From Azolla caroliniana (taxonomy: Eukaryota > Plantae > Polypodiophyta), in contig JBHGNT010000013.1 in assembly GCA_043228905.1 (NCBI GenBank), forward strand, positions 17,918,001 to 17,982,000: DNA of 64,000 nucleotides, written 5' to 3'. The notes under the pieces were generated by a model that did not search any database, was not told the DNA's origin, and was given only the letters and a program-made list of their open reading frames with translations. Both the position numbers and the translations under genes were made by a program. Shown one piece after another: positions 120 to 64,000 of the stretch; the stretch's first letter is position 1; the number at the start of each line of letters is the position of its first letter.

Positions 120-3100
120 TCATGCATATATATTTCCCATAGAAACATAGGTAGCAGCACACTTTTTATCCAACTCTACTGATTGCTCAAAAGCCCATCT
201 CCCAAGCTTCACATTACTCCATTTTCTACAAGAGCCCAATATACTTCGTAATAGAGGAAGATTTTCAGAATAGGGAGCCGTGTCAAGGAAAACATTCAGC
301 TTGTCAAAGCATCCTGCACGGCCAAACAGATCAATCATACATGTATAGTGTTCTTGAGTCGGAATCAAACAGTATTGCGCGCACATTTCATCAAATAAAA
401 TTTCGCCCTCCTTCACTAGACCTGCATGACCACATGCATTCAGCAAAACAACGAATGTAACAATATCTGGCATAACATCTTCGGTTTTCATTCTGTTATA
501 AAGATCTAAAACCATATAAACTTGACCAAACTGGCCATACCCAGCGATCACAGCATTCCAAGACACAACATCATGGATTGGAATGCCCTCAAACACGGCT
601 CGTGCTTTCCTCAATTCTCCACATTTTGAATACATCTCCACCAACGCGTTGCCAAATACGAAATATTTCTCCAATAACCCGTTGTTCCTAACCTCAGCAT
701 TTATATCCATCCCAATCTCTAGAGACCCCACAATGCTACAAGCTTTCAAAATGCAGACATATGTTACCTCATCCGGACAGACATTTATATCTTTCATTTG
801 TTTGAAGCATTTCAATGCCTCATCGCCAAGCCCATTTTGGGTATATCCAGTGATCAGTGCATTCCAAGTAACAATATCCCAAACTGGAAGCTTTTCAAAC
901 ACTTCTTGTGCTTTCTCTAATGCCCCACACTTGCAATACATGTCCAGTACCGCATTGCCAAGAACAACGTCTTTCTCCAATAAATCATGCTTTCTGACCT
1001 CAGCATATATATCTTCCCCAATCTCCAGAGACCCAACAATACCACAAGCTCTCAAAACGGACACATAAGTTACAGAATTGGGAGAGACTCCCCTATCCTT
1101 CATTTGTCTGAAACATATCAAGGCTTCATCACCAAGTCCATTTTGGGCATATCCAGCAATCAGGGCACTCCAAGCCACAACATCCTGTTCCTCAAGCTGA
1201 TTAAATACTTCTCGTGCTTTTGTTAGCATGCCACATTTTGAATACATGTCCACCAATGCATTTCCAATTAAGACATCTTTCTCTAATAATCCTTTCTCTC
1301 TGATCTCAGAAACAATATCTTCCCCAATTTCAAGACACCCCACCATGCCACAAGCTTTCAAAATACTGACATAAGTTACTGCACTTGGAAAAAAACCCGC
1401 ACCTTTCATTTGTTTGAAACATTTTAAGGATTCATCTCCAAAACCATTTTGGGCATATCCAGAAATCAGGGCATTCCATGAGACCACATCACGCATTGGA
1501 AGCCGCTCAAACAATTCCTGAGCTTTTTCAAGTGCACCACACTTGCAATACATATCCACTAATGCGTTGCCAACCATGACATCTTTCTCCAATAACCCTT
1601 GCTTTGTAACCTCAAGGCATATATCTTTTCCAGCCTCCAGAGACCTCAAGATGCCACAAGCTTTCAAAACACTGACATAAGTTATGGCATTTGGACAGAC
1701 TCCTGCATCTTTCATTTGCAAGAAACATTTCAATGCTTTGTCAGCAAGTCCAACTTGGGTATATCCTGCAATCAGGACACTCCATGACACAACAGTTTTT
1801 TCTGGAAGCTCTTCAAAAACTTCTTCTGCTTTCACTAGTGCACCACACCTGGAATACATATCCACCAATGCAGTTCCTAGCATGACATCTTTCTCCAATA
1901 ATCCTTGACGTTTAACCTCAACATGTATATCTTCCCCTATCTCTAGACACCTCATGAAGCCACATGCTTTCAAAACAGAGATGTAAGTTATCGAATTTGG
2001 ATAGAATCCTGCATCTTTCATTCCTCTGAAGCATTTCAGGCATTCATCACTGAGTTGGTTTTGGGCATATCCAGCAATCAAAGTACTCCAAGAGACAATG
2101 TTCTGCTCTGGCAGTTCCTCAAATACTTTCTGTGCTTTTTGCAGTTCACCACACTTGCAATACATGTCCACCAATGCATTGCCGAGCACCACATCTTTCT
2201 CCAATAACCCTTTATTTCTGACTTCAGCATATATATCTTCCCCAATATCTAGAGATCCTTCAATGCCACAGGCTTTCAATATACAGATGTAAGTTACGGA
2301 ATTCGGACATAGCCCTGTAACTTTCATTTGTCTAAAGCATTCCAATGCTTCATGACCAAGTCCATTATGGGAATATCCACCAATCAGCGCATTCCAAGTC
2401 ACAACATTCCGCTCACGAAGCTCCTCAAACACTTTTCGTGCTTTGTCCAAAGCACCACATTTGGCATACATGTCTGCCAATGCAGTACCAAGCACAACAT
2501 CTTTCTCCAATAACCCTTGCTTTCTTACCTCAGCATATATATACTCCCCAATCTCGAGAGACTTCACAATGCCACAAGCTTTCAAAACAGAGGCATAAGT
2601 TACTGGATCAGGAGAAAATCCCTCATTTCGCATTCTTCCAAAGCATTGTAATGCTTCATGGCCGAGCCTATTTTGGGCATATCCACAAATCAAGGCATTC
2701 CAAGACACAACATCCCGCACTGAGAGATGCTCAAATATCTCTCTTGCTTCCTCCAATGCACCACATTTGGCATAAGCTGTGATCAGAGAATTGGCAATAT
2801 AAGCATCTTCTGCAATCAAGTTGTGCTTAACGATTTCCCCATGTATCCTTTGCACCTTTGATATGTCCTTCTCTTTTCGACATAATTTTATCTGATTCAA
2901 AAGCCTAATTCGATGTCCAAACTGAACTTTTCGCAACAGTACATCATCATCACAAACCACCTTCCCAGTGGAATGAGGCAAGCTCGTGTCCTTTAACTTA
3001 TCAATTGCAAATGGTGGATTGGAGACCCAACATGCATCCAACATGGATTCCCTGCTTTGTTTGTGCCTAAGGAAGGGGGGATGTGAAGAAAGCCATAGAG

Positions 3101-3235
3101 GTGCAAGGTTTCCCAGAGGGAGAAACTTTTGACACTTGGAAGTGGGCTTACCTTGTGGTGGTTATCCGAGAAGCTTGATGGGTCTCTGAAGAAGAAGTAG
3201 TAGTTCCATGAGAGCTTGGTGTCTGTGGAAAACAT
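120..3235 (-). CDS. PLS-class PPR protein with E domain, no DYW (PPR-1); main ORF 3044-120, conserved upstream exon 3235-3152
   Basis: 974-aa ORF with 8 near-identical ~102-aa P-L-S units (VVSWNALI / VTYxxxLKAC / ALVDMYxKCG) and an E-type end (EHYTCMIDLFGRAG...KLGRWAFEQS...MGNIYA). The upstream exon MFST...FRDPS...HHK|GTAAG is shared with two paralogs, but the paralogous CAG acceptor is missing here. The C-terminus ends ~25 aa earlier than in PPR-3. Confidence 0.9.
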
Positions 3236-6897: not shown

Positions 6898-9038
6898 AAT
6901 ATGGCAGGCTATATTTGTAGTTTCGGAGAATTTGGGGCCCATGTTTGTCTACTATACAAAGGAGAAGAAAGTCTACAAAAATACATACATACATACATAC
7001 ATATACATATAAATTATAATGATATATGTATGTATTTCCAAGACACTACTGTTTTTCGTATTTAGTCGTGCAACACAGGAAAATAACAGGATCGCGAAGA
7101 AGCCTGCAGATTGTGATTCCAGGTTAGTGTCTGATCTAAGAATGTACTCCTTATTCTTCTGTTTATTTCCTTCTTGAAATTATCGGCTGTTTGATCTTCC
7201 GTAAATTCTAAGTTGCTTGTCTTCAATACATCTTTCTTAGAACGTCCTGCTTTTGGCCAAATCATTGACTTTAATGACGACATTGTGTGAGATATATTTA
7301 GTGTTGGTTGAACTTAGGATCAATTCATACAAATCTAGATATCATCAATCAGGAGACATGAATCAGATCAGAGTTCACCAGAAACCTTTTTTTTTTTCGT
7401 TTTTTCTTTTTCACCAACAAAAGTACTTTCTTTTCAGCTCTTTGTTAGTATGTATATTGTGAAAAAAATAGTTCTATGTAGAGAATCATCGAAATCATAA
7501 CTGCTGTAGATAAAGGCAAAGATTTTTGCAATCGTAAATTTTCATATAAATTTTGTTCCTTTGCCAAAACGTCTGTTCCAAGAAACAATACACAAGCTCA
7601 CAAGAGAAATATGGAGAGTATATGAATCAATCACTCAATAAAGATTTAATTGTAAAATCAGAATCCAAAATCATGGCTCACAATGTTCGATTACAAGATT
7701 TAAGCCATAGTCATGTTTAACATCAATGAATCATGGAGATATTGCTTCATAGTTTTGAAGTTCTACAATGAGATGAGGACTTCCACTGGCTGTTGCTTGG
7801 CAATCGTCAGTACTTCCACTGCTGATGATCCTGTTAATGGTGATGGTGATGGTAATGATGTTGGGGATGCTGGTGAGGTTGATGATGATGATGATTAAGA
7901 GGCCAATGATTGTGGTGGTGGTGGTGATGATGATGAGAGAGACAGTTGCTGAATGGTACTCCTATAATTATTTGCACCGCTTCCTTCCATCCTCATGCTA
8001 ATACTTTTGAGACAAACCTGATTGATTCCCCATTCACTGCTTCTGAGCCCCCCCTTATTTCGCACGTTCCTACGTTTTATCATTAGCTTCTTAAGACGTT
8101 GTTTTCTTTGTTCTATTTCTTTGCTTTGGTCTTGTTCCCACAGCACACACACATTTGTATTGCAATGCATTATATTATCGATAGGAAACAAATCTTGATA
8201 TGAGAAGAAAACTCACTAAAAATGATTACAATGAAGTGATTTACAGGTTATTGTATCATCTACAAACTACAAATATTTAAAAAAGAGGGCATATATACAC
8301 ATCTCACTATCTTTTGAGACATATCCAGAATGTTAAGATTGACGGAAGTGAAAATCTTCCTAGTCTAGAGTGAAAACTTTGATTTATGAGTGGAAAGATT
8401 ATCTGGGATATGTCGATGATCCAAAGATGCTATCATACATCAAATGATGGTTTTCTATTTCCACGTTGACCCTAAGCATCTTTTCGATCATCAAATCAAA
8501 TCCATTGCATTTGATACTGAAAGTGGAGCCGAGATTTTTATTGGGAACTTCTTGTAGGTGTCCATATTTTTGCTCCTTCTACAGTGTACAGTGGCCATGC
8601 GATAGCAGTGGTACTGTGGGCCTTTGTTTACCCATTTCTTTTATTTTTCGCCTACATGAGACTAACATATCATATGCAATGTCTTGTTGAGTATCCACCA
8701 TAGACAATGTTGGGCTCTTGGAGATGTTAACACATCTTTCTCTCGTTATAGCTTTCTACAGCATTGATACTTGAACATTATTGTCTTAGTCAACTAAATT
8801 CTGAACGATATTTAAATCAACATTTGACATATTTCACAAGCATTTTGACCTTCCCAAGCAGTGATTTGAGCGTTAAAAGATGAATGAGAACATTATTAAA
8901 AAACAAGTTTTGGGTCTTCCTGAGCAGCTTCAAAACTGTTCCATAACCAGTGGTATACAAACTGTGACTCTTATGTTCAACTTCCTATTAATTGTTCGGT
9001 AGTCGTTGCAATCATATGTTACTTAGCTGTTTTCAGGC

Positions 9039-13192: not shown

Positions 13193-15750
13193 CAAGAAAC
13201 TAAGTGCTTCTTCAGGGACCCAGCAAACTTCTGGCACGACAACCATCACCACCACAAGGTAAGCCCACCTCAACCATCAAAGCGTTTCTCCTCAGGGGAA
13301 CCTCACAACCCTGAAAGCTCTCTCTGTGGTTCTATTCACAGAGAAACCTCAATTCCCCCGATTTCAAGCACAAATATATACGGAAACCATGTTGGCTTCA
13401 TGTCAGGTCCACCGTCGAACCCAACATTTGTGAGCGACAAGTTAAAGGAACCGACCTTGTTTGCATTGCGGGTATGGAGATTTATGATGATGATCAGCTT
13501 ACTCCGAAATTGTGGTTTCATGACCGGATCACACTTCTGAACCTGATAAAGTTGTGCCAGAAAGAGAAGAACATATCAACTGTGCGGAGGATACATGCTG
13601 ACATTCTCAAGTCAAACTTGATTGCAAAGGATGTTTATATTGGGAATGCCTTGATTACGACATATGCTAAATGTGGTGCACTCAAGAAAGCACGTGAAGT
13701 ATTTGAGCAACTCCCAGTGCAAAATGTTGTGTCTTGGAATGCTTTGATTGGTGGATATGCCCAAAATAGGCTAGGTAGTGATGCATTGAGATATTTCAGA
13801 CAAATGGAAAATGTAGGAGTATGTCCAAATACGATCACCTACATTTTTGTTTTAAAAGCATGTGGGGTTGTGCGATCTCTAGAGATTGGGGAATTTGTAG
13901 ATGTTGAGATCAGAAAACAAGGGCTTTTGGAGAAAGATATTGTCCTGGGCACTGCATTGGTGGACATGTATTGTAAATGTGGTGCATTGGAGAGAGCACA
14001 GAATGTGTTTGAACAGCTTACAGAAAAAACAATTGTGACGTGGAATGCTTTAATTGCTGGATTTTCTCAAAATGGACTAGGGCATGAAGCATTGAAATGC
14101 TTGAAACAATTGAAAGTTTCTAGCGCCTGTCCAAATTCAGTAACTTATCTCTGCATTTTCAAAGCTTGTGGCATTTCCAGGTCTCTTGAGGTTGGGGAAG
14201 ATATAGATGCTGAGGTCAGAAAGCAAGGTTTATTGCAAAAGGATATTATGCTTGGTACTGCATATTTGGACATGTATTGCAAATGTGCTCAGTAGAGAAA
14301 GCAAGAGAAGTGTTCGAGTTGCTTCCGCAACAGGATGTTGTATCCTGGAATACTCTGGTTGCAGGATATGCCGAAAATGGTTTTGGGGATGAAGCACTGA
14401 AATGTTTCAAACAAATGAATGAAGTGGGAATTCGTTCAAATACGGTAACTTATATATGCATTTTGAAAGCTTGTGGTGTGTTGTGGGATCTCTGGAGATA
14501 GGGGACGACCTATACACCAAAGTAAGAAATCAAAGGTTATTGGAGAAAGATATCATGCTTGGCACTGCATTGGTGGACATGTATTCCAAATATGGTGCTC
14601 TACATAAAGCGTGGGAAGTATTTGAACAGCTTCCAGAGCGGAATGTTGTGACTTGGAGTACCTGATCGCTGGATATGCTCAAAATGGACTTGGCGATGAA
14701 GCGTTGACATGCTTCAAACAAATGAAAGGTTCATGTGTTTGTCCAAATTCGGTAACTTATGTTTGCATTCTGAAAGCTTGTGGCATTGTGAGGTCTCTAG
14801 TGATTGGGGAAGAAATATGTGCTGAAGTGAGAAAGCAAGGGCTACTGGAAAAAGACTTAATGTTGGGCAATGCATTGGTTGATATGTTTTCAAAATGTGG
14901 TGTTCTAGAGAAAGCACAAGTTGTATTTGAGCAGCTTCAAGTGCGGGATGCTGTATCTTGGAATGCCATGATTGTTGGATATGCTCAAAATGGACTCAAT
15001 GGTGAACATTGAAATACTTCAGGAAAACGAAAGATGAAAGAGTTTGTCCCAATACAATAACCTATATCTGTATTTTGAAAGCTTGTGACATTGTTGGATC
15101 CTTAAAAATTGGGGAAGAAATAGATGCTGAGGTTAGAAATCAAGGGTTGTTACAGAAAGATGTTATCCTAGGCTCTGCATTCATAGACATGTATTCGAAA
15201 TGTGGGGCATTGAAAAAAGCACGAGAAATATTTGAGCACCTTCCAGTACAGAATGCTGTGACTTGGAATCCGCTGATTGCTGGATATGGCCAGTTAGGTC
15301 AAATTAACGTGGTTTTGGACCTGTATAGTAGAATGAATGTTGAAGGTGTACCAGATGCTGTTACCTTGTTTTGCTGAATGCATGTAGTCATGTGGGTTTA
15401 GTGAAGGAAGGTGAAAAGTTGTTTGATGAGCTGTCAGTTGTATATTGTATAACTCCAATACTAGAACACTGCACCTGTATGGTTGATCTATTCGGCCGTG
15501 CAGGCTGTTTTGACAAGATGAAAGCCTTCTGACAAGGTTTCCCATTCAGGCCACCCTCCACTATTTCAGAGTATATTGAGTTCTTGTATAAAATGGAGGA
15601 ATGAGAAGTTTGGGAGATGGGCATTTGAGCAATCAATACAACTGGATAAAAATTGTGCGGGTGCATGTCTGCATGGGCAATATGTTTGCAACATCTGAAA
15701 TGCAAACAGCGGCAGGTAGTATAGTTGAGGCTTTTGTTAGAAAGGAATAA
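13181..15750 (+). pseudogene. PLS-E PPR pseudogene (PPR-2), exon 1 13181-13258, exon 2 from 13342
   Basis: Paralog of PPR-1 and PPR-3 with 6 PLS units. Frameshifts near 14285, 14480, 14660, 15010 and 15370, and a stop in the E region. Confidence 0.9.
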
Positions 15751-27032: not shown

Positions 27033-29058
27033 TTAATCCAGGGATATCTTACATACTCTATTCTTAATTCTTAAGGCTTCAATTCTATCAGCCTCTATTT
27101 GCATTCCAGCTGCTGCATATATGTTCCCCATGCAAGCATATGCAGCACCACATTTGTCATCCACTCTTATTGATTGCTCAAATGCCCATCTCCCAAGTTT
27201 CACATTCCTCCATTTTATACAAGAACCCAATATACTCTGAAAAAGCGGAAGATGGCTGAAATCAGGAAACTTACTGAGCAAGGCCTTTAACTTGTCGAAA
27301 TGTCCTGCGCGCCCAAATAGATCAACCATACACGTGTAGTGTTCTAGCGTTGGAGTTAAACTATACACAACACACATTTCATCAAACAACTTCTCGCCCT
27401 GATCCACTAGGCCTGCATGGCTACATGCATTCAGCAAAACAATGAAAGTGATCGAGTTCGGCACAATAAGTTGAGCCCTCATTTTACTATACATGTTCAA
27501 AACTACATGAGCTTGACCCAACTGGCTATATCCAGTGATGAGGGCATTCCAAGATACGACATCCTGCTCTGGAAGGAGCTCAAACACTTCTCGTGCTTTT
27601 TCCACTGCACCACATTTTGAATGCATGTCCACCAATGCATTGCCAACCACCACATTCATCTCCAATAAGCCTTGCTCTCTGACCTCAGCATCTATATCTT
27701 GTCCAATCTCTACAGATTGCATGATAACACAAGCTTTCAAAATGGCAATGTAAGTTACCGCATTCGGACAGACTCCTGCATCTTTCATTTCTCTGAAACA
27801 TATCAATGCTTCATCACCAAGTCCATTTTGGGCATATCCAGCAATCAGAGCACTCCATGACACAACATTCCGAATTGGAAGCTGGTTAAACACTTCACGT
27901 GCTTTCTTCAATGCACCACATTTGCAATACATATCCATGATGGCAGTGCCCAGCACGATGTCTTTCTCCAATAATCCATGCTTTCTCACTTTGGCATCTA
28001 TAATTTCCCCAATCTCAAGAGATCCCACAATCCGACAAGCTTTCAAGACGCTCACATAAGTTACCTCATCAGGACATACTCCAGCATCATTCATCTGTCG
28101 GAAGCATTCCAGTGCTTCATTGCCAAGACCTTTTTGTACATATGCAGTAATCAGAACACTCCAGGATACAACATCCCTTTTTGGAAGCAGCTCAAACACT
28201 TCTTGTGCTCTCTCTGGCAAACCACATTTGGCATACATGTCCACCAATGCAGTACCAAGCACCACATCCTTCTCCAAAAACCCTTTTTCTCTCATCTCGG
28301 CATCAATATCTTCCCCAAGCTCTAGAGATCCAACCATACCACAAGCTTTAAAAATGCATGTATAAGTTACCTCATCAGGACTGACACCTGCATCTTTCAT
28401 TTGTCTGAAGCATCGCAAGGCTTCATCACCGAGACCATTTTGGACATATCCAGAAATCAGAGCATTCCAAGAGACGACATTGTGGATCGGAAGTTCATCG
28501 AAGAATGCTCTTGCATCTTCCAATGCATCACACTTGGCATACGTTGTGATTAAGGCATTTGCAATACAGATATTCTTCGATTTTACAAGCAATCTTTTCT
28601 TGACAACATCAGCATGTATCAATCGCGTCTTCACTAAGTTCCTCTCTTTTTGGCACAACTTTATCGAATTCAAAAGAGAATTCCGATCTCGAAACCGCAA
28701 TTTCGGCGGAAGCCCATCATCGGTGTCAGCATCATTACGAATCACCTTACCGGCGGAGTGAAGCAAGCTGAGATCTTTCAACCTGTCCGTGACAAATGGT
28801 GGGTTGGACGACCCAACACGGACCGGACATGGTTTCTCGGTTGGTTTGTGGCCAGAGACCGGGGAATGAGGGGTTCTCTGTGAAGAGAGCCACAGAGAAA
28901 GCTTTCAAAAAGATGCAGGGATTCCCCAAAGGAGAAACAACATTGGAGGATGGAGGGGTGGGCCTTACCTTGTGATGGTGACGTTTGTTGTGCAGGAGAT
29001 TTGATGGATCCCTGAGGAAGGGCTGCTCCCACAAGGACTTGGTGTATGTGGAAAACAT
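27033..29058 (-). CDS. PLS-class PPR protein with E domain, no DYW (PPR-3), 2 exons (29058-28969, 28877-27033), ~644 aa
   Basis: Exon 1 MFSTYTK...HHHK|GTAAG, a 91-nt intron ending CTCTCTTCACAG|, and a phase-0 join into the 582-aa ORF with no stops. 4 PLS units plus an E region. Probable organellar RNA-editing specificity factor. Confidence 0.92.
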
Positions 29059-43488: not shown

Positions 43489-43832
43489 TCATCTGTTCAT
43501 CAAGTGCTGCGCCTTGCAATGGCCCATCAAACACGTTGGCCGGAACTGGGTCCAAATCAAGCCGTCTTCTGGTCCTCCATTTGTTGTCGGGCTTGCCGAT
43601 GACGTTCCCTCGTTGTTTGTCGAAACTGTATCTTGAGCACCTCCGCGCGGATGCTCAATGTGACCACTCGGGGAAATCCAGACAACCGCCAACATCAGCA
43701 TTTCAGCCTTGCAGGCCTCCAGGTAGGTTGTGACATTCTTTCCATTAAATCGTCCTATCGTGCCAACTATCGTCTTAATGGCTCTGTTGAGCCCCCCTGA
43801 GCTCTCTCGAGCATTAACAAGGCGGTCCACGA
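43489..43832 (-). mobile_element. gag remnant of the Trp-primed family, interrupted by element C
   Basis: IVDRLVNARESSGGLNRAI...GRFNGKNVTTYLEACKAEMLM aligns to element B Gag (AVDRIVSTREGIGALDRAI...RFSGKDATSYL..AEMLM). Confidence 0.8.
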
Positions 43833-46800
43833 TGTCGTGAAGAATGTGATTCACGATATAAAAATGAGCTTAAATATTGTATTTAATAATATTTGAGAGA
43901 CTTGAACCCACATCCTTATATACGAACTACAATGTACATACCACTAGGCTAGGCTATTTATTTGTAAAAGTTTGTAAAATAAATGTCCTTCGTGATATAA
44001 GAATGAAGCTATATATTGTATTGAGTAAAATAGTGAGATTTGAACTCTCAACCTTGTATACCAAACACAAAGCATACACCACTAAGCTAGGTTAGTTATT
44101 TTAGAATGCATTTTCATCATTATACTTATCACATATCTATTTTCATACATAGCCATCATGCATCACATGCAATGCATGTGTGCCAAATGGTGATCATGCA
44201 TTACATGTAACTCATGCATTGCATGCATGCCATGCTCCCATACATTACCATATGCATGGCAACACTTATATAAAGAGGGGCAAGGAAACAAGAGGGAATA
44301 AAGAAGAGAGAATAAGAAAATAATACAATGAAGTAAAGAAGACTAGCTCATTGGGTGGAGAACCTCTCGTTTCGAAGTTGAGGTCGTGGGTTCAAATCAA
44401 GGGTCTGTAGAGAATGTGTTCAGTTTGCGATCAAGGATTGTAAAGTTGGTAAAATATTATATTTTTAATATACATCATGTTTATATCATATACTCTTGTT
44501 CCTTGAATCATATTTTGTCTCAATCTTCTTTCTAGAATCATACTTTGTCTCAATCTTCTTTCTTGAATCATACATTGTCTCTATCTTTTATCTATGCTCG
44601 TCTCTCTCTCTCACACAGACACACACACACATTACTCGTAACTCTTCTTCTTACTATCCTTAACCATTCTATCATCACCATACAAGCCTTATTAAAAGTT
44701 AAGTTTCTTCAACTCCCCTTCCTTAGTCCCCGCGACTTCGCCGCACGAACCACAACTACCCCGACACATTTGGTGAACCCAACGTGAAGGCGGCGACAAG
44801 GAGAAATGGAGGAGCAAATGAGGCTTATGTGTACAATGATGGAACGAGTGATGCGGGAACAAGGGATGATGGCAAGCATCGACAAAGCCGTCGACAATAT
44901 TCTCGCACGAGTAGGAATCTTCGAAGGTATGAATTTAACAAGATTTTTGAAGATTTACAAAGAGGAAATGCTTAAACGAGGTGTCGACGAAGCGGCAAAA
45001 ATTAATAGCTTTAGTCGAGTCGCTGCGATTGGGTTACAAGAAAGGATCCAGGAGCTACATAGGGAACATCAGACATGGGCGACTTTTGAAAGAGCATTGC
45101 TAAATGAATACAACCTCAACGATATGTCAAGGATGACAAGGAGAGCTTTCATGGATTGGGTAGAGTCTAATAAACATTTAAGTGTTTTGGAAGTATTAAA
45201 AGAGTTTTCTGAAAGATTTGAGCAATTAAATGTTAGAGATAGAAATATAATAGTGCCAGATAAAGTAATATTGTTTCTACAAGCTACTAATATTAAAGAC
45301 AGGAAGGACTTAGGAATGCTCTTAGAAGATCAGAATAGTCCAAGTGGACTTATTGAAGACTGGGAGGAGGTGAAAAGGGCGTGCGCCCATTTCTGCAAAA
45401 GAAAGTTATGGTTTATGGAGTTGTCCGATAGAAATGATGAAGAAACGGGGAACGAGTCGAGAGAAAAGAAAGTAGAAGAATCACTCTTACACGAATTGGT
45501 GAAAGGCATGAGAGACTTGTCGATCAAAGTGACGAAGCTAGAATCGGGATAAAGCTCGACTTCATCAAGGCATGGAGGTGGAATGGTCCGAAGGTGTATG
45601 TGGTGTGATAGTATCGACCACCAGAAGAAAGATTGTCAAGAGCATAGGGATGCTCTTAATCATAATAAAATCTACTATCAAGATGGCAAGATTCACTCGA
45701 TAGAGACTCGACAACCACTTCAACTCAACTTCGGGCGAGGAGGAATGAAAAAGCTAATGGAAGATGCCGAGAGAGAAACGACTCAAGCGATACAATCCGC
45801 GTAGAAGACTCATATGGTGGATCTAGCTTTTGGCAAGATGTGATGGATTATGCAAGAAAAGGGAAGGTTCGAGTGGATGAATTAAAAAGAGCGGGAGATA
45901 AAATATGAAACTTCACTGGATGAAATGATCCAATAGACGGCTATCAGCATTCGCCCAAGTGAATGCACAAGATGTGCTAGTGGAAGAGAAGCGGAAGAGA
46001 GTTGAGGAAGCTGATTTGACAAAGAGACATGAGACACGAGAACAGAAAAGAAGGGAGATGGAAAAGGGTGCTACTGAGCCGAAGGAAGCTGATAAAGTAA
46101 AAGGAAAGATAGGCCCATCTTTCAAGCTTGCCTCAGACATAGAAACAACGACGGATATAAAAAAGGTACTAGAAAGAAGAATATTAAATAGTAAGGTAGA
46201 ATTTACTTTAAGAGAAGTGTTGGGTATAGCAAAGAAAGAATTTCATGAAGTTATCATAGATATTATTAGAAGGAAGAGACAGGTGACAGAGGAAATTACG
46301 GGAGGGTGTGCAGCAACACTCCAAGATTTGTATGGTGGCACCATCAATGCTGCAAGTGTAAAAAACCAGAATGATGTTGGCGTCCATGAAGGGGATAGGA
46401 GTCACTATACAAGGGACCATTGGGCTCAAGCAACAACGGAGGCACCTGCAAAATATGGGGAGCAGCAAATTCCATGTATTGCTTTGATCGATCATGGATC
46501 TGAGATTAACATGATGTCATCAGAATTTTACGCTCGAGGATGGTGGCCGATCAACAAGAATCATGGGTGGAAAATAAGAGCTGCCATAGAGACTACGGAG
46601 GATCTATTTGGAGCATGTCCTAGTGTGAAGGTAACAATTGGTGATGTGTCGGTGAATCAAAATTTCTTTGTGCAAGATCGATCAACCTACCCCATCATCC
46701 TTGATTAGCCCTACATCACCGCAGTGAGGATGGAAACAAAGGTTATTGATGATGGTTCGGCTTTCGCGAGAATCAAGAGTTAAGATGGAAGAAAGACTGT

Positions 46801-49800
46801 CCAATTCTTAACTGTGAGGCCCAACCATGAAAGAAACAAAGAATGCTTGAGGGAACATCCAATTCAAGAGATGGATGAAGAGTTTTCCCAGGATTTTTAG
46901 ATAGGCCTTTTACAGGTAGGGGTTGTGATAGCCCAAACATAAAAGAAAACCCCATGAATAATAATGTAAATAAAGATATTCCTTGTACAATCTCATCTAA
47001 TGGTGCTACTTTTATACTAAAAGTAAATAACAATAAAATACAAAATGCTTTCGAGTACTTTAAGTGTTCTGGATTAATAGATGATGATGAAGAAATTCAG
47101 GATATGTTTGAAGAATTAAGTTTTGAAGATACAATAACTCATTTGGAAGCAATGGAAGAAGACAACGAAATCCAAGTTCCTGTCCATTCAATCAAGATGT
47201 ACGAGGTCATTGAAGAAGTTGCTCAAAAGGATCATAAAGCACATGTACTAACAAAGTACAAGACAGTGGAGAAGAAGGTTCGTCCTATTGCTATTCCACT
47301 TCCAGGGGATAGTGAAAAGGCAATCAAAGAAGCAACCATAGAGCCAATGGTTAGAGATCCACGAAAGGTGGGACAGGTGTTTACTCCGGAAACAATACAA
47401 GGGATGAAAATAGGAGGGGGTGTCTTCCTATTACCTTCTGAAGAAAAGTAATTCAGGGAGATGTTAAAAAGGCATGGAAAGGCGTTCACATTCCAACCTG
47501 AGGAAATAGGGCGTGTGGATCCAGAAATTGTAGAGCCCATGGTTATTTTCATTATTCCTCATATTCCATGGAACTTTAAGCCAATACCCATGCCTAGGGC
47601 TAGAATCCCTCAACTATTAGAACTTCTGAAAGAAAAGATAAGGATGGGTATCTTGGAACCATCGAACGCTCCTTACTCGAGTCGATGGTTCATTGTGTTA
47701 AAGAAAGATGGGCGACTCCGATTTATCCAAGATATGCAACCCGTGAATAAAGTAACAATCCGAAACTCGGGAGTAGGGCCAATTGTGGATGAGTTTGCTG
47801 AGATGTTTGCAAGAAGAGCTATATATTCAATGGGAGACCTTTATTCCGGGTATGATCAATTTCAAGTTGCTATCAAAAGTTGAGATATAACTTCTATCAA
47901 GACACCTATAGGGTTAGTACGGATGTGTACCTTGCCGCAAGGAGCGACCAACTCAGTGGCACATATGATGAATGGAATGAACAAGGTACTTCGTGATTTT
48001 ATTCCTCATATTACAATGCCTTTTTTAGATGATGTTCCGATTAAGGGATGCAAGGAGGAAGAGAAGAATGAGGAATTGGACGAAAGTGGTTGCCATCAAT
48101 TCATCACTGACCATATCAAGGATTGTGAGAAGGTACTATCAAGGATGGAAGAAGTGCACTTGACCTTATCAGGGGCGAAGTCAATATTTGGGGCAAACGA
48201 GATCTTAATAGTTGGTCATATGTGTGGCCCGTACGAGAGAAAGCCATCCCCAGCCAAGGTCAATGCAATTCAAAATATGCAAGAGGAATGTACATCCGTC
48301 TCAGAAGTACGAAGGTTTCTGGGGGTATGTGTTTTTTATTGTAAATGGATTCCGCATTATGCCCATTTATTCGAACCTTTATATAGACTCCTAAGAAAGG
48401 GAGAGACATTTGAATGGAGTGAAGAGCATTCAGAGGCAATGAAGAGATTGAAGTACTACTTAGCACAAGCTCCACCATTAAAGCAACCTAACTACACCCG
48501 ACCCATATATCTCACAGTAGACTCTAGTCCCATTGGAATTGGATGGGTGATAAGCCAACAAGATGGGGAAGAAAGGTATCCAATTCGATTCGGAGCAAAG
48601 GTTCTTAGTGGTCGACAAAGAAGATATGCACAGGTGAAAAGAGAGCTATGGGGGATAGTAACATCAGTAAAGATAAACAGAGATTACTTAATCAGTGTTG
48701 AAGTAATAATAGAAATAGATTGTTTGCCTATTCTTGGTATCATAGCTAATTGTGATATTCCAGATCAAGCCATGTTAAGATGGTGTATCTATATTAGATC
48801 AGTCAACCCTGAAGTTAGACATATCTCTGGGAATAAAAATGCAGTAGCAGATATGTTATCAAGAACAAGGTATAAGGAAGAGGAGATTCCAGACTCGGAC
48901 GATGAGGACAAAGAACAAACTGTCCTTGCCACAAGCATTACCCGAGGAGGGATGCAGTTTCTAGAAGAGGAGTATGAAGAAGAATTCAAGGAAATAGGGA
49001 AATACCTACAAACCCCTGAAAAGTACAAAGGTCGATCTGGAAAAGATTTCGCGCAGTTTCGCAAGAAAGCCCATAAGTTCTTCCTGCATGAAGGATATCT
49101 ATGGCGACATCCAAAGACCAAGACTGGAAACCCGCAAAGAGTAATAGGTTCTGAAGTGCAAAGAAAGGAGGTAATGAGAGAGTTGCATGACAAAGAATGG
49201 GCTGGTCATCGAGGAGTGTGGGCCACTTTCAGTAAGATTAAAGAACGGTTTTGGTGGCCTCGATACTATGAGGAAATAAAGAAGTATGTAGAAACTTGTC
49301 CCACTTGTCAATATTATTCAAATATAAATTTTTTTGATGAGTTAAACCCAACATACTCACCGGGGGTGCATTACAAGTGGATGATAGATTTGGTAACAAT
49401 GCCACTTGGAGTAGGACAAAAGAGATACTTGGTTCTTGCTAGAGAAGATCTAACAAATCAAGTGGAAGGTTGTTCATTGAGAACAAAAGGGACATTAGGA
49501 GTATGTCAATTCATCTTGGAGGACATTGTTTGTAGATATGGATGTATCGGGAAGATAGTGGCAGATAGGGGAGAACTCAATTCTGCGGAAGCTCAAGATT
49601 TTTTCGACGAAATAGGAATTCAATTTTCTTTGACAACGGTGTACAATCTAGAAGCTAATGGAAAGATAGAAAGGGGACATGGGCCAATAGTCAAAGCTTA
49701 GGCAAATGCACGTAGAGGACGGGTTAGTGATTGGCCAAAAATCTTACCCTATGCACTATGGGCTGATAGGACAACTCACAACACTGTTACTGGATATATG

Positions 49801-50340
49801 CCTGCAGAATTAATCACAGGACAGAAGCCAATAATGTCAATTGAAGAAAAGATACCTACATGGGCTGTGTTGCCTTGGGAATCAGAAATGAGTAGGGAAG
49901 ATTTACTTGCGGTTTGAATACGACAACTTCAATCAAGGATAGAAGACATAGAAAAAGCAGCTACTAGATTGAAAGAGGCAAGAATCAAGAATAAGGACAG
50001 ATTTGACAAGATGAAAAGAATATGACCTAGAAAGGTGCAAGAGGGAGATTGGATATTAGTATATGATAGTAGCCTAGATAATCAATACAGTACTATTCGA
50101 AAGTTTGCAAAAAGATGGTTTGGACCTTATAAAGTTAGGAAAATAACAGATAAAGCCACATATTTCCTCAATGAATTAGATGGGACAGAAATTCGTATCC
50201 CAGTTGCAGGAAAAAGGATTAAAATATTTAAAAGGAGGGAGTCATTAGAGCCCGAATTAGAATGGGAGGTTAACCCTTACGTGCTTCCGAGCACAAAAGG
50301 GGATGAACAATGTGTGAAGATTAACAAGATAAAGAGCTAG
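43833..50340 (+). mobile_element. Element C: AT-rich member of the Trp-primed Ty3/gypsy family, 3' LTR missing
   Basis: 5' LTR 43833-44766 (TGTCGTGAAGAA...CGACA), Trp PBS, and gag/PR(DHG)/RT(FLDD)/RH/INT collinear with element B. Several stops. Confidence 0.93.
44344..44398 (+). other. tRNA-like A-box/B-box cassette inside LTR of element C
   Basis: TAGCTCATTGG...AGGTCGTGGGTTCAAATC at tRNA spacing; stems imperfect, so not a functional tRNA gene. Two antisense copies at 43899-43951 and 44037-44089. Confidence 0.6.
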
Positions 50341-50600: not shown

Positions 50601-52112
50601 GGTTTACTAGTTAGGCTAGAGAAAAACTTGAAAGTTAGAAATTTGAGAGAGAGAGAGAGAGAGACTACACAGAAGCGAGAGAGAGAGAGGGAGGGAGGGA
50701 GCGAGGGAGACTACACGGAAGAGAGAGAGAGTGTCATGATGACACTCACATTTTGTCTGGAAAGGAATTGAACCCACAACCTTGTTATACACATGTCAAA
50801 TCCTTAACCATTGTAATAACAAGTTGATGTGTATTGTTTTTAGAATATATAATCTAATATCATAAGGATAAACTGAATTACTTTATATTCTAGAATGTCC
50901 TAGAGTATTCTAGAGTGTTCTATATGCTAGAACCTTCTAGAATACGCTATAAACCTTCTAGATTACTAGATTACCCCATAATATCCTAGAGTGTTCTAGA
51001 TTACTCTATAGAGAGTTATAAATAAGGAGTTATCAACCATCCAAAAACCAAATTGGTTCAATGCCATCCTATAGCTCCCTATTGCCTACTCTATGAACTC
51101 CATCTTATATCACAATACAATACTTTCTTTTCAATTCTCTCTTTCTGCCTCATCAATATATCTCTTTCCCTTTTTTCTCTCTCTTTCTTCTCTTTCTCTA
51201 TTTGTCTTGACAGTTTGAACCAATTTCTTTTTCATTTTCTCCCTCTTCCATAAGTTCTCTTATTTCTTCTCCTCTCCCCTCGTTCTTCATCGAGTCTGTG
51301 AGCAAACAAGAATATATCCATGTTCTCTCCGAGCTTGACATGCTCACGAATAAATTTGTGGCATTAGAGCATGAAAATCAAAGGCTATTGGGCGACCTAC
51401 AACAAGTGAGTACCGAAAGAGCTCAACAAGTTGAAGAATCACAACGGGTTCACCAACTCGAGGCTACTATATTTTCATTACGGGAACAAGCGTCGGGGGC
51501 TCAAAACTCCCCTCGAGAACCAAAGATTAGTCTCCCTGCCAAATTTGATGGTACGAGGTCTTTATTTCGAGGTTTTTTGAATCAAGTCCGTTTGGTTATT
51601 CAGTTACATCCCAATCGGTACCCAACTGACACGGCTCGTGTGGGATTAGTGGGAACCTTGTTATGTGGTACAACATTAGCATGGTTTGCACCACTTCTTA
51701 AGAAGAAATCACCATTGATAGACGATTTTGAGGCATTTGTTAAGGAGTTTCAGGCTAGTTTTGGAGACACCGATAGCACTAGGACGGCGATAAACAAGAT
51801 TCGAAGACTCCGGCAAGCAGATCGTCCCACGTCAGCGTATGCAGCTGATTTTTGTCTTTTGCCATGTGATATCCCTTGGGATGAGGCGGCTTTAATGGAT
51901 CAATTCCGTCAAGGTTTACGTAATGACGTCAAAGATCTTCTACTTACTTTCCATGAAGATCCGAAGTCTCTAACAGAGGCTATTAGTCCAGCTGTGCGAT
52001 GTGATAATCGTCTTTTTGAGCGACGTTTTGAGCACCAACAAATGCTACATCGCCAACCAGAACAAACGTATGCTTCCGTAGTCGCAACGCCCCCACAAGT
52101 TTCCAGACCTGT

Positions 52113-62431: not shown

Positions 62432-64000
62432 TGATGACAACGATATATTATGTGAAAAGAATATACAAGGATGGCTAGGAGGCTTAAGACTGGCGTTGAA
62501 CCGATTTGGTTCGAAATAATGCATTGTAACTCCTTTTATAGTGTTCTTAGGAGTACTACTGAAGTTTCTAGAATGTTCGAGAGAAATCTGGAATATACAT
62601 CAATTTTCTATAGTAAAACTTCAATGAATATAATATTCTTTATATTACAACCTATAGTTAATGGTCAAGAGCGTGACCCATGTAACATAAGGTCATGGGT
62701 TCGAGTCTTGTCATATTATGACACTATCCCCCCTTTAAAACGATGAGTGTCACGAGTCGTTTTGGATTGGGGACCCGGTTTTTTTGGATATTGAAGATGG
62801 AAGTCTTCAAGAAGAGCAAAAGCATTGGTCATATTCTCCAAGTATGCTCGTTGGGACTATATCCTAGCCAATCGACTAAATAGTAGAGCTTGTTGCAAAC
62901 AATCTTGGAATCGAGGATGGCAGCAACCTCGTACTCAAGTCCATCTTCAAGTTTGATCGGGGGTGGAGGTTCTTTAATACGACTTGAGATGGTGCTGTCT
63001 TCATAAGGTTCGAGGAGAGAACTATGAAACTTCGGATGTATCCGAAGTTGTGGAGGTAGATCGAGACGAAAAGTGACATCATTAATTTTTCCGATAATAC
63101 AGAAAGGACATAATCGCCGATAATCCAATTTCTCGCATGGGCGAGTAGTCTTGATGTGTCGGCGTAGTAGCCATACCCGATCTCCAATGTTAAAATTGGA
63201 TGGAAGTCGATGACGATCTGCGTAAACCTTGTGTGTTTGTTGAGCTTGTTGTAGATGAGTAGATAAATCCGCTTGTATCTTGCTTAACCGCTCCAAATGA
63301 TCCTCTACGCAAGGATTTGTGGGTAACTCTAGGGTTTCAAATACACACCACCGAGGGTGACAACCCGTATAAGCATAAAATGGTGTAAACTTTGTCGATG
63401 AGTGAATAGAGTTATTATACGCAAATTTGGCGAAGTGGAGAATATTCGCCCAGTCATCTTGATGATAGCTTAGAAAGCACCGAAGATACTGCTCCAACGT
63501 TTGATTTGTTTGTTCTGCTTGGCTGTCTGTTTGCGGGTGGTAGCTGGAGGAGAGGTTACAAGTGACCTTGGGCATTTTAAAGAGGTGCTTCCAGAATTTT
63601 GAGATGAATTGGGGTCCACGATCGTTGATGATACTATCGGGAAGGCCATGATGCCTACATACTTCACGCATGACAATTTCAGCGGTTTCTTCACTAGAGA
63701 TTTCCTTAGTACATGGCAGGAAATGGGTCATCTTCGTATATCGATTAACTATTGTTAAGATCGCATCGAATCCCTGAGAGACCGAAAGATCTGTGATGAA
63801 ATCTAGAGCAATGGATTGCCACGGCTTGCTTGGAATTGGTAATGGTTCTAATAAACCATATGGATGATGCCTTGGCATTTTTGCTCTGCAACATGTATCA
63901 CAAGTTCGAACAAATTCTTCGACAAATTGTCACATATGGGGCCACCAGAATGATCGTTGTACTAAATCTAATTTTTTAGTACTACCAAAATGCTCTGTTG
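62294..64000 (-). mobile_element. Element F: 3' end of a chromovirus (integrase + chromodomain + 3' LTR), continues beyond the window
   Basis: INT (WQSIALDFIT, NDRGPQF, YHPQTDSQ), chromodomain EYEVAAILDS...YYLVDWLGY...TW, PPT AAAGGGGGGATAG, LTR 62723-62294 (TGTCA...TGACA). Confidence 0.92.

Follow-up and report, generated by a model that had tools for sequence, protein, structure and literature searches.

The window, that is, the whole 64,000-nucleotide stretch of Azolla caroliniana DNA that was analysed, contains PPR genes with a 306-nt repeat together with nested LTR retrotransposons, a content which marks it as plant nuclear DNA. The repeat units of the PPR genes (306 nt, 102 aa) are found at 120-3161, 13315-15350 and 27033-28904. 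The retrotransposon considered here, element C, is inserted in the gag-like start of a minus-strand retroelement (43832-40005, - strand) that element B interrupts in turn. It is preceded by the target-site flank ACGA of NCGN type (43829..43832, + strand), the right-hand copy of which is not in the window, and begins with a 5' LTR of 934 bp displaying TGTCG...CGACA ends (43833..44766, +). The LTR end and the letters CATT are followed by a primer-binding site (44771..44788, +), which we take to be of the tRNA-Trp type, and by a decayed gag-pol (44788..50340, +) in which DUF4100, reverse transcriptase (RT), RNase H and integrase are interrupted by stops and frameshifts. No chromodomain was found in this gag-pol, and the named proteins nearest to its pol originate from a liverwort, Riccia (up to 57%), and a fern, Adiantum, which points to a seed-free land plant as the likely host. 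The polypurine tract and the 3' LTR of element C are absent from the window; the LTR status of 43833-44766 was therefore taken from other copies. Beyond the end of the element, the segment 50340-50640 holds a GC-rich repeat from about 50441, presumably resembling a hAT miniature element.

The left boundary was set from contig depth and from family copies. All four runs display a roughly hundredfold increase in depth within the bin 43823-43863, and contig pieces begin at 43831-43833; such depth is not copy number, and the window itself may derive from one of the four runs. The LTR starts at the same letters in three other complete copies (L028, L032 and L046), so that the start near 43850 given in the preliminary description has to be moved to 43833 (TGTCG). 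The first 10 letters are also identical in the sibling elements B and D of the window, and element B is bordered by ACGA on both sides. The left flanks of the family copies, TCGC (L028), GCGT (L032) and GCGC (L046), are all 4-bp NCGN. A 4-bp NCGN target duplication and a tRNA-Trp primer-binding site are described for the Phygy lineage of non-chromovirus Ty3/gypsy elements in the available part of PMC6317226. Element C fits a Phygy-lineage Gypsy element, an assignment made by target duplication and primer-binding site, the tree having been built without a Phygy reference. The likeness comprises the NCGN duplication, the primer-binding site (isotype assumed), a compact polyprotein and the lack of a chromodomain; the difference is that Pol III boxes are not mentioned for Phygy LTRs in that part of PMC6317226, and most of the related LTRs analysed here are also devoid of them. 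Searches of viral contigs with the pol protein of element C gave 79 pattern matches and 0 confirmed ones, and the primer-binding site pattern of the family gave no match there.

Three tRNA-like cassettes lie within LTR C at the coordinates and on the strands announced in the preliminary description. A cassette was defined as a B box with an A box (at most 1 mismatch) 41-47 nt upstream. The antisense cassette U1 (43899..43951, -) has its A box at 43951-43941 and its B box at 43908-43899, and the first T-run is found 35 nt past the B box, within the LTR. The antisense cassette U2 (44037..44089, -) has its A box at 44089-44079 and its B box at 44046-44037, with a T4 run 7 nt past the latter; most of the contig depth in 3/4 runs displays C at 44039 and 44046, which brings this B box nearer to the consensus. 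The sense cassette S (44344..44398, +) has its A box at 44344-44354, its B box at 44389-44398 and its first T4 64 nt farther. The T8-to-G53 distances are 44 (U1), 44 (U2) and 46 nt (S), the same as the tRNA spacing that had been proposed (T8-to-G52: 43, 43 and 45 nt). Under the same rule, 5000 Markov shuffles of LTR C gave a mean of 0.002 cassettes and none (0/5000) had two or more, and the whole window holds 7 cassettes vs 0.33 expected.

The antisense cassettes are carried by a tandem duplication (43843..44101, +) of a unit of about 139 bp, as had been noticed near the LTR start; its copies, 43843-43963 and 43982-44101, are offset by 138-139 and 75% identical, and L046 has a single unit. Contig joints located at 43909-44091 go back 53-88 nt (e.g. 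from 44091 to 44004), which suggests family copies with a third antisense unit. The three cassettes bracket a CATG-rich palindromic block (44151..44262, +), which is likely to be a Pol II enhancer region and displays 84% pairwise identity in the family, and the TATATAA motif reported at 44267, which is indeed present (44267..44273, +), has a TATA-like counterpart at the corresponding place in family copies and is the TATA box of a likely Pol II promoter. The two antisense units face outward. The proposal that tRNA-type cassettes flank the Pol II promoter is thus borne out by the layout, which is repeated in a distant family described below.

Copies of the family were collected with a pattern built from the LTR end and the primer-binding site, and therefore blind to the boxes. 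At least 122 metagenome loci were obtained, 80 of them with flanks, mostly from neighbouring assembly identifiers and hence probably from few hosts. Among the matches listed, five loci end like LTR C: L028, L032 and L046 are complete, L093 and L108 partial. Both antisense cassettes and the sense one are present in L028 and L032, a single antisense unit and the sense cassette in L046, so that 3/3 other complete LTRs of the family among the matches listed carry cassettes; the sense B box is kept in the two partial copies (2/2 among the matches listed). Contigs spanning the cassettes come from 4 runs, 3 studies and 3 organism labels. Since L028, L032 and L046 stand in unrelated flanks and share the cassettes, one-off SINE insertion is excluded and the claim that the cassettes are built into the LTR is upheld. 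We read the cassettes as a family-wide part of LTR C.

The same layout was encountered in a distant family, L069. In its LTR of 1031 bp (903-1933) the B boxes of the two antisense cassettes, offset by 142 nt, occupy LTR positions 182 and 324; a CATG block is present as well, the TATA box is located at position 534 and the B box of the sense cassette at 705. The corresponding positions in LTR C are 67 and 205 for the antisense B boxes, 435 for the TATA box and 557 for the sense B box. The sense cassette is also present in the other L069 LTR (7666-8272). Shuffles gave a mean of 0.003 cassettes, with 0/3000 having two or more. The L069 pol is 61% identical to that of element C and no nearer to it than the pol of cassette-less families. 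No BLAST hit was obtained between the two LTRs at E 1e-4; the CATG block of LTR C has a weak match in the L069 LTR (E 0.001), and global LTR alignment gave z 4-6 for L069 vs C and z 3.2 for C vs D. The tree does not support C and L069 as sisters, the order in which C, L069 and the L051/L060 branch separate at its base being unresolved. Because the antisense units group by family, with similarities of 0.68-0.90 among the C units, 0.69 between those of L069 and 0.50-0.58 from one family to the other, the duplications in the two families are likely to be separate, or homogenised.

The boxes had been described as conserved while the sequence between them diverged. This stands between families, applies only mildly to the antisense cassettes within family C and in part to the sense cassette. 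Counted over pairs of family C copies, which are not independent, the identities in U1 are 30/30 for the B box (1.00), 29/33 for the A box (0.88), 82/96 for the spacer (0.85) and 104/114 downstream (0.91). The same non-independent pairs give 51/60 (0.85), 53/66 (0.80) and 151/192 (0.79) for the B box, A box and spacer of U2, and 46/66 for the A box, 126/198 for the spacer, 49/60 for the B box and 98/177 for the next 30 nt of cassette S. The sense B box is therefore at 0.82 within a stretch at 0.55-0.65; a comparison of boxes and surroundings in three pairs of cassette S yielded p values of 0.008, 0.10 and 0.34, one of the three being significant. Comparison of U1 with U2 inside a single LTR gave, for boxes vs spacer, 18/21 vs 22/32 in the window, 18/21 vs 26/32 in L028 and 19/21 vs 25/32 in L032. 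Between C and L069 the cassettes agree at 16/21 box letters and at 19/83 letters around them, a contrast inflated because it was the boxes that revealed the cassettes of other families. The sequences thus point to selection on the boxes with modest evidence within family C and stronger evidence between families. A CpG-free form of the B box (TTCAA) was seen as a possible selected variant on a basis of only 3-4 independent sites.

Among the complete LTRs anchored by a primer-binding site in the matches listed, 5/31 hold a cassette (L028, L032, L046, L055 and L060) and 26/31 hold none; the L069 3' LTR is outside these 31 rows, and the LTR starts of L029, L030, L032, L046, L049 and L079 were set too far out, which only adds flank. 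The LTRs of the window siblings B and D have no cassette. L055 has one antisense cassette (759-812), while its sisters L065 and L073 have a damaged B box and the second L065 LTR is without cassette. The U3 of L060 holds a single sense cassette (about 1820-1900) and with it a T6 run. Two chromovirus LTRs of the window complete the series: LTR E (50732-51225, +) has a single antisense cassette (50765..50818, -) near its start at 50732, and the 3' LTR of the minus-strand element F (62723-62380, -; start 62723) has a single cassette antisense to F (62655..62707, +), directly behind the polypurine tract. Both cassettes lie 17-43 nt from the LTR start. The single cassettes of L055, L060, E and F suggest repeated recruitment. 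The module recurs in two deep Gypsy lineages yet is dispensable for the clade.

A few neighbouring observations are recorded for completeness. The chromovirus LTRs E and F look self-priming in the manner of Tcn1/Tf1, and the 10-11 letters just behind LTR E could pair with a stretch that lies about 30 nt downstream of the TATA box of this LTR. In L008 (12008-12070) an antisense B box lies 9 nt behind a TGTCA start, forming a candidate LTR, and at 15-100 of the window a TGTCA has an antisense B box (at 54) and a weak A box behind it, which may be an LTR fragment or chance. In L092 (306-337) the match to the primer-binding site appears to extend over about 29 nt vs the usual 18, with a T-loop-like motif recognised by eye. 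The measured carriers have a GC content of 0.35-0.43 and the cassette-less B and D of 0.52; the CpG observed/expected ratio is 0.46-0.72 in the AT-rich C, L032 and L069 and 0.96-1.11 in B and D, L055 and L060 displaying intermediate GC with a ratio near 1.

These distributions bear on a neutral explanation, according to which the heads of tRNA-type SINEs landed repeatedly in AT-rich LTRs and were copied along with them, the U3 duplications being slippage. The weak box-over-spacer conservation within family C, where antisense boxes are barely above their spacers, argues for such passengers and against selected sites, as do the 26/31 related LTRs without cassette among the matches listed and the decay and loss in the L055 family. 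SINE insertion has also been proposed by Kojima as the origin of the Helenus elements (PMC10886601), and independent captures of different heads would equally give like boxes with unrelated spacers. Passengers do not readily account for the equal number, order and orientation of cassettes in the two deep families C and L069, nor for the sense B box standing out from its stretch. Free-standing SINE copies of the cassettes were not seen in the 64-kb window and in 241 kb of loci chosen around LTRs, where the cassettes lying in LTRs amount to 5/7 and to 12/12 strict matches, respectively; contig depth over the cassettes, which again is not copy number, is not above that of the rest of the LTR. We regard neutral passengers as unlikely.

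The tRNA identity of the cassettes is limited to part of the molecule. ARAGORN reported no tRNA gene in the window; outside it, the program indicated a tRNA-Leu(CAA)-like gene in L065 (4795-4878), which is preceded by TATA motifs and separated from a Phygy LTR by about 230 nt. The Infernal RF00005 check suggested in the preliminary description did return tRNA-like matches on the LTRs, with 17.2 bits (U2, E 0.89) and 19.1 bits, both of which remain under the cut-off of 29. No 5S match was obtained at E up to 10. The core of a type 2 Pol III promoter, namely an A and a B box at tRNA spacing, is found in the LTR C cassettes, and each of the 19 listed cassettes retains the two boxes 42-45 nt apart. 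In 10 representative cassettes 163/170 box letters match, a total which is inflated by the use of the boxes to recognise non-C cassettes and lowered by an L060 A box scored one base off (5/8); acceptor and anticodon positions form 58/120 pairs, with 42% expected by chance, and the acceptor stems have 2-5 of 7 pairs. The cassettes are thus interpreted as something other than fresh tRNA captures, because the boxes match while these stems pair near chance, with the caveat that a SINE stage could have shaped the boxes before capture. The antisense units of family C have a 5/5 anticodon stem in 6/7 copies, which fits young captures or an RNA structure as well.

Another possibility is that the cassettes act as Pol III genes and are kept for their short RNAs, which would serve as decoys, guides or silencing suppressors. 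The maintenance of both boxes at their spacing in 19/19 cassettes would be in line with this, together with the anticodon and T stems that persist in the C-family antisense units and the T-runs located 7-35 nt behind the B box in 7/7 antisense cassettes of family C and 16 nt behind it in L060. The Pol III microRNAs in the U3 of foamy virus provide a precedent (available text of PMC3993851). The would-be transcript is nevertheless unlike between families, the spacer agreeing at 6-9/23 positions, and the family C cassettes do not fold better than shuffles (z -1.6 to +1.3); the idea of an RNA fold shared by the families was rejected. The terminator varies from +5 to beyond +100 across cassettes. 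In plant tRNA genes a TATA is found near -35 and a CAA between -7 and -3 (PMC3082873, in its available part); across the 19 cassettes these upstream signals are scattered with no common position. Because they are not consistent, factor binding is favoured over strong transcription, and working Pol III genes are in our opinion distinctly improbable.

Descriptions of Pol III promoters in LTRs concern miniature non-coding elements, in which they make the element RNA. The preliminary description compared the cassettes with Cassandra, a non-autonomous TRIM whose plant LTR has one sense, transcribed unit of 5S type (PMC10886601, in part). The analogy is a loose one: both have internal Pol III promoter parts inside a plant LTR, whereas those of LTR C are putative, tRNA-type, multiple and mostly antisense, and a role in making the element RNA is barred by T-runs and outward cassettes. 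The idea of a tRNA-type analogue of Cassandra is sound insofar as the cassettes are tRNA-like; such an analogue has already been published as Helenus (TRIMp3), non-coding TRIMs of 311-1263 bp whose LTRs hold tRNA-derived sequence with conserved boxes (PMC10886601). The Helenus promoter is proposed to make template RNA, and autonomous counterparts are expected to use Pol II promoters (Kojima 2024, PMC10886601). Element C likewise has the A and B boxes of a tRNA-like sequence inside its LTR, but encodes a gag-pol of more than 5.5 kb with RT, RNase H and integrase, has its own TATA box and contains three cassettes, two of them outward, with T-runs that bar a Pol III RNA running from LTR to LTR. 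Element C therefore shares the Helenus promoter parts and is not a member, since it departs from that group in size, coding capacity and template RNA.

A template RNA made from the sense cassette in the manner of Helenus and Cassandra, or boxes serving as landing pads for Pol III-targeting retrotransposons, was nevertheless considered, since cassette S is in the orientation of the element within the LTR and the TRIMp3 model is published (PMC10886601). Between cassette S and the end of the integrase, 22 sense-strand T-runs of at least 4 (7 of at least 5) were counted, by which a Pol III transcript is ruled out as the genomic RNA of element C; because of this, the element is set apart from Cassandra and Helenus. 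In family copies the first T-run is met 5-64 nt past the sense B box. Element C exceeds 6 kb vs 311-1263 bp for Helenus (PMC10886601), and in the alignment none of the 11 complete C-family cassettes has a nested insertion ahead of it, at odds with landing pads. The 3' ends of the cassettes are not complementary to the primer-binding site, by which their use as self-primers was rejected as well. Both versions of this explanation are judged very improbable.

The reading that we tentatively prefer, at a little short of an even chance, is that the cassettes are selected, predicted TFIIIC sites which keep the Pol II promoter open. It is favoured over the three others because what persists is the pair of boxes, the distance between them and their divergent arrangement about the enhancer and TATA box. 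The proposed course of events can be briefly summarized as follows. The cassettes would have been captured from a tRNA gene or a tRNA-type SINE, their boxes selected while inside the LTR, and the tandem duplications would have arisen separately in two families. TFIIIC would occupy the boxes, and a nucleosome-poor or barrier effect would guard the enclosed enhancer and TATA box from silencing, thereby raising the Pol II output of genomic RNA. A Pol III transcript, if made, would measure no more than about 70-140 nt, stop at the T-runs inside the LTR and be a by-product. TFIIIC-only sites, nucleosome-poor tRNA genes and tDNA insulation are reviewed in the available part of PMC11346459. Counting against TFIIIC, methylation impairs its binding and the barrier evidence is mostly non-plant (same part of PMC11346459), and clustered Arabidopsis tRNA genes are silenced (PMC7544208, in part).

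Other known systems resemble the predicted sites in some respects. The Pol III microRNA cluster of foamy virus also belongs to a coding retroelement, has several A/B-box units with terminators in U3 and is separate from the Pol II genome transcript, like the LTR C cassettes; it differs in consisting of microRNA hairpins with demonstrated products, whereas LTR C has decayed tRNA bodies without a conserved hairpin, and the LTR C cassettes lie on both sides of the TATA box (PMC3993851, available text). BLV also has Pol III miRNAs, which can be grouped with the foamy virus cluster in both likeness and difference (PMC12498455, in part). The tDNA insulators and extra-TFIIIC sites likewise contain B boxes, and a role in chromatin organisation has been proposed for them whether or not Pol III transcribes them; these are described as host chromosomal, whereas the putative sites of LTR C ride a retrotransposon around its own promoter (PMC11346459, available part). 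In a search of openly accessible papers, tRNA boxes in the LTR of a full-length plant Gypsy element were not found described. According to Kojima, tRNA-like pieces occur in 'not a few' Repbase LTRs, only those shorter than 1000 bp having been analysed (PMC10886601); undescribed long precedents in Repbase are therefore likely.

The three-cassette LTR is, on the sequence evidence, a real, family-fixed and recurrent feature for which function is predicted only. Cassettes in long coding elements cannot make the element RNA and therefore need another purpose. The wider generalization that full-length Gypsy elements of seed-free plants repeatedly captured tRNA boxes, using TFIIIC as an anti-silencing insulator around the Pol II promoter, in at least 4 Phygy and 2 chromovirus families, two of which would have amplified them in tandem independently, is offered as doubtful. 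If the cassettes are neutral, LTRs would be recurrent sinks and spreaders of tRNA-like sequence, confusing tRNA and SINE annotation. If they are TFIIIC sites, they would represent a transposon counter-silencing device which requires no protein of its own, and would provide a direct test of B-box barriers in plants as well as a short candidate insulator for transgenes.
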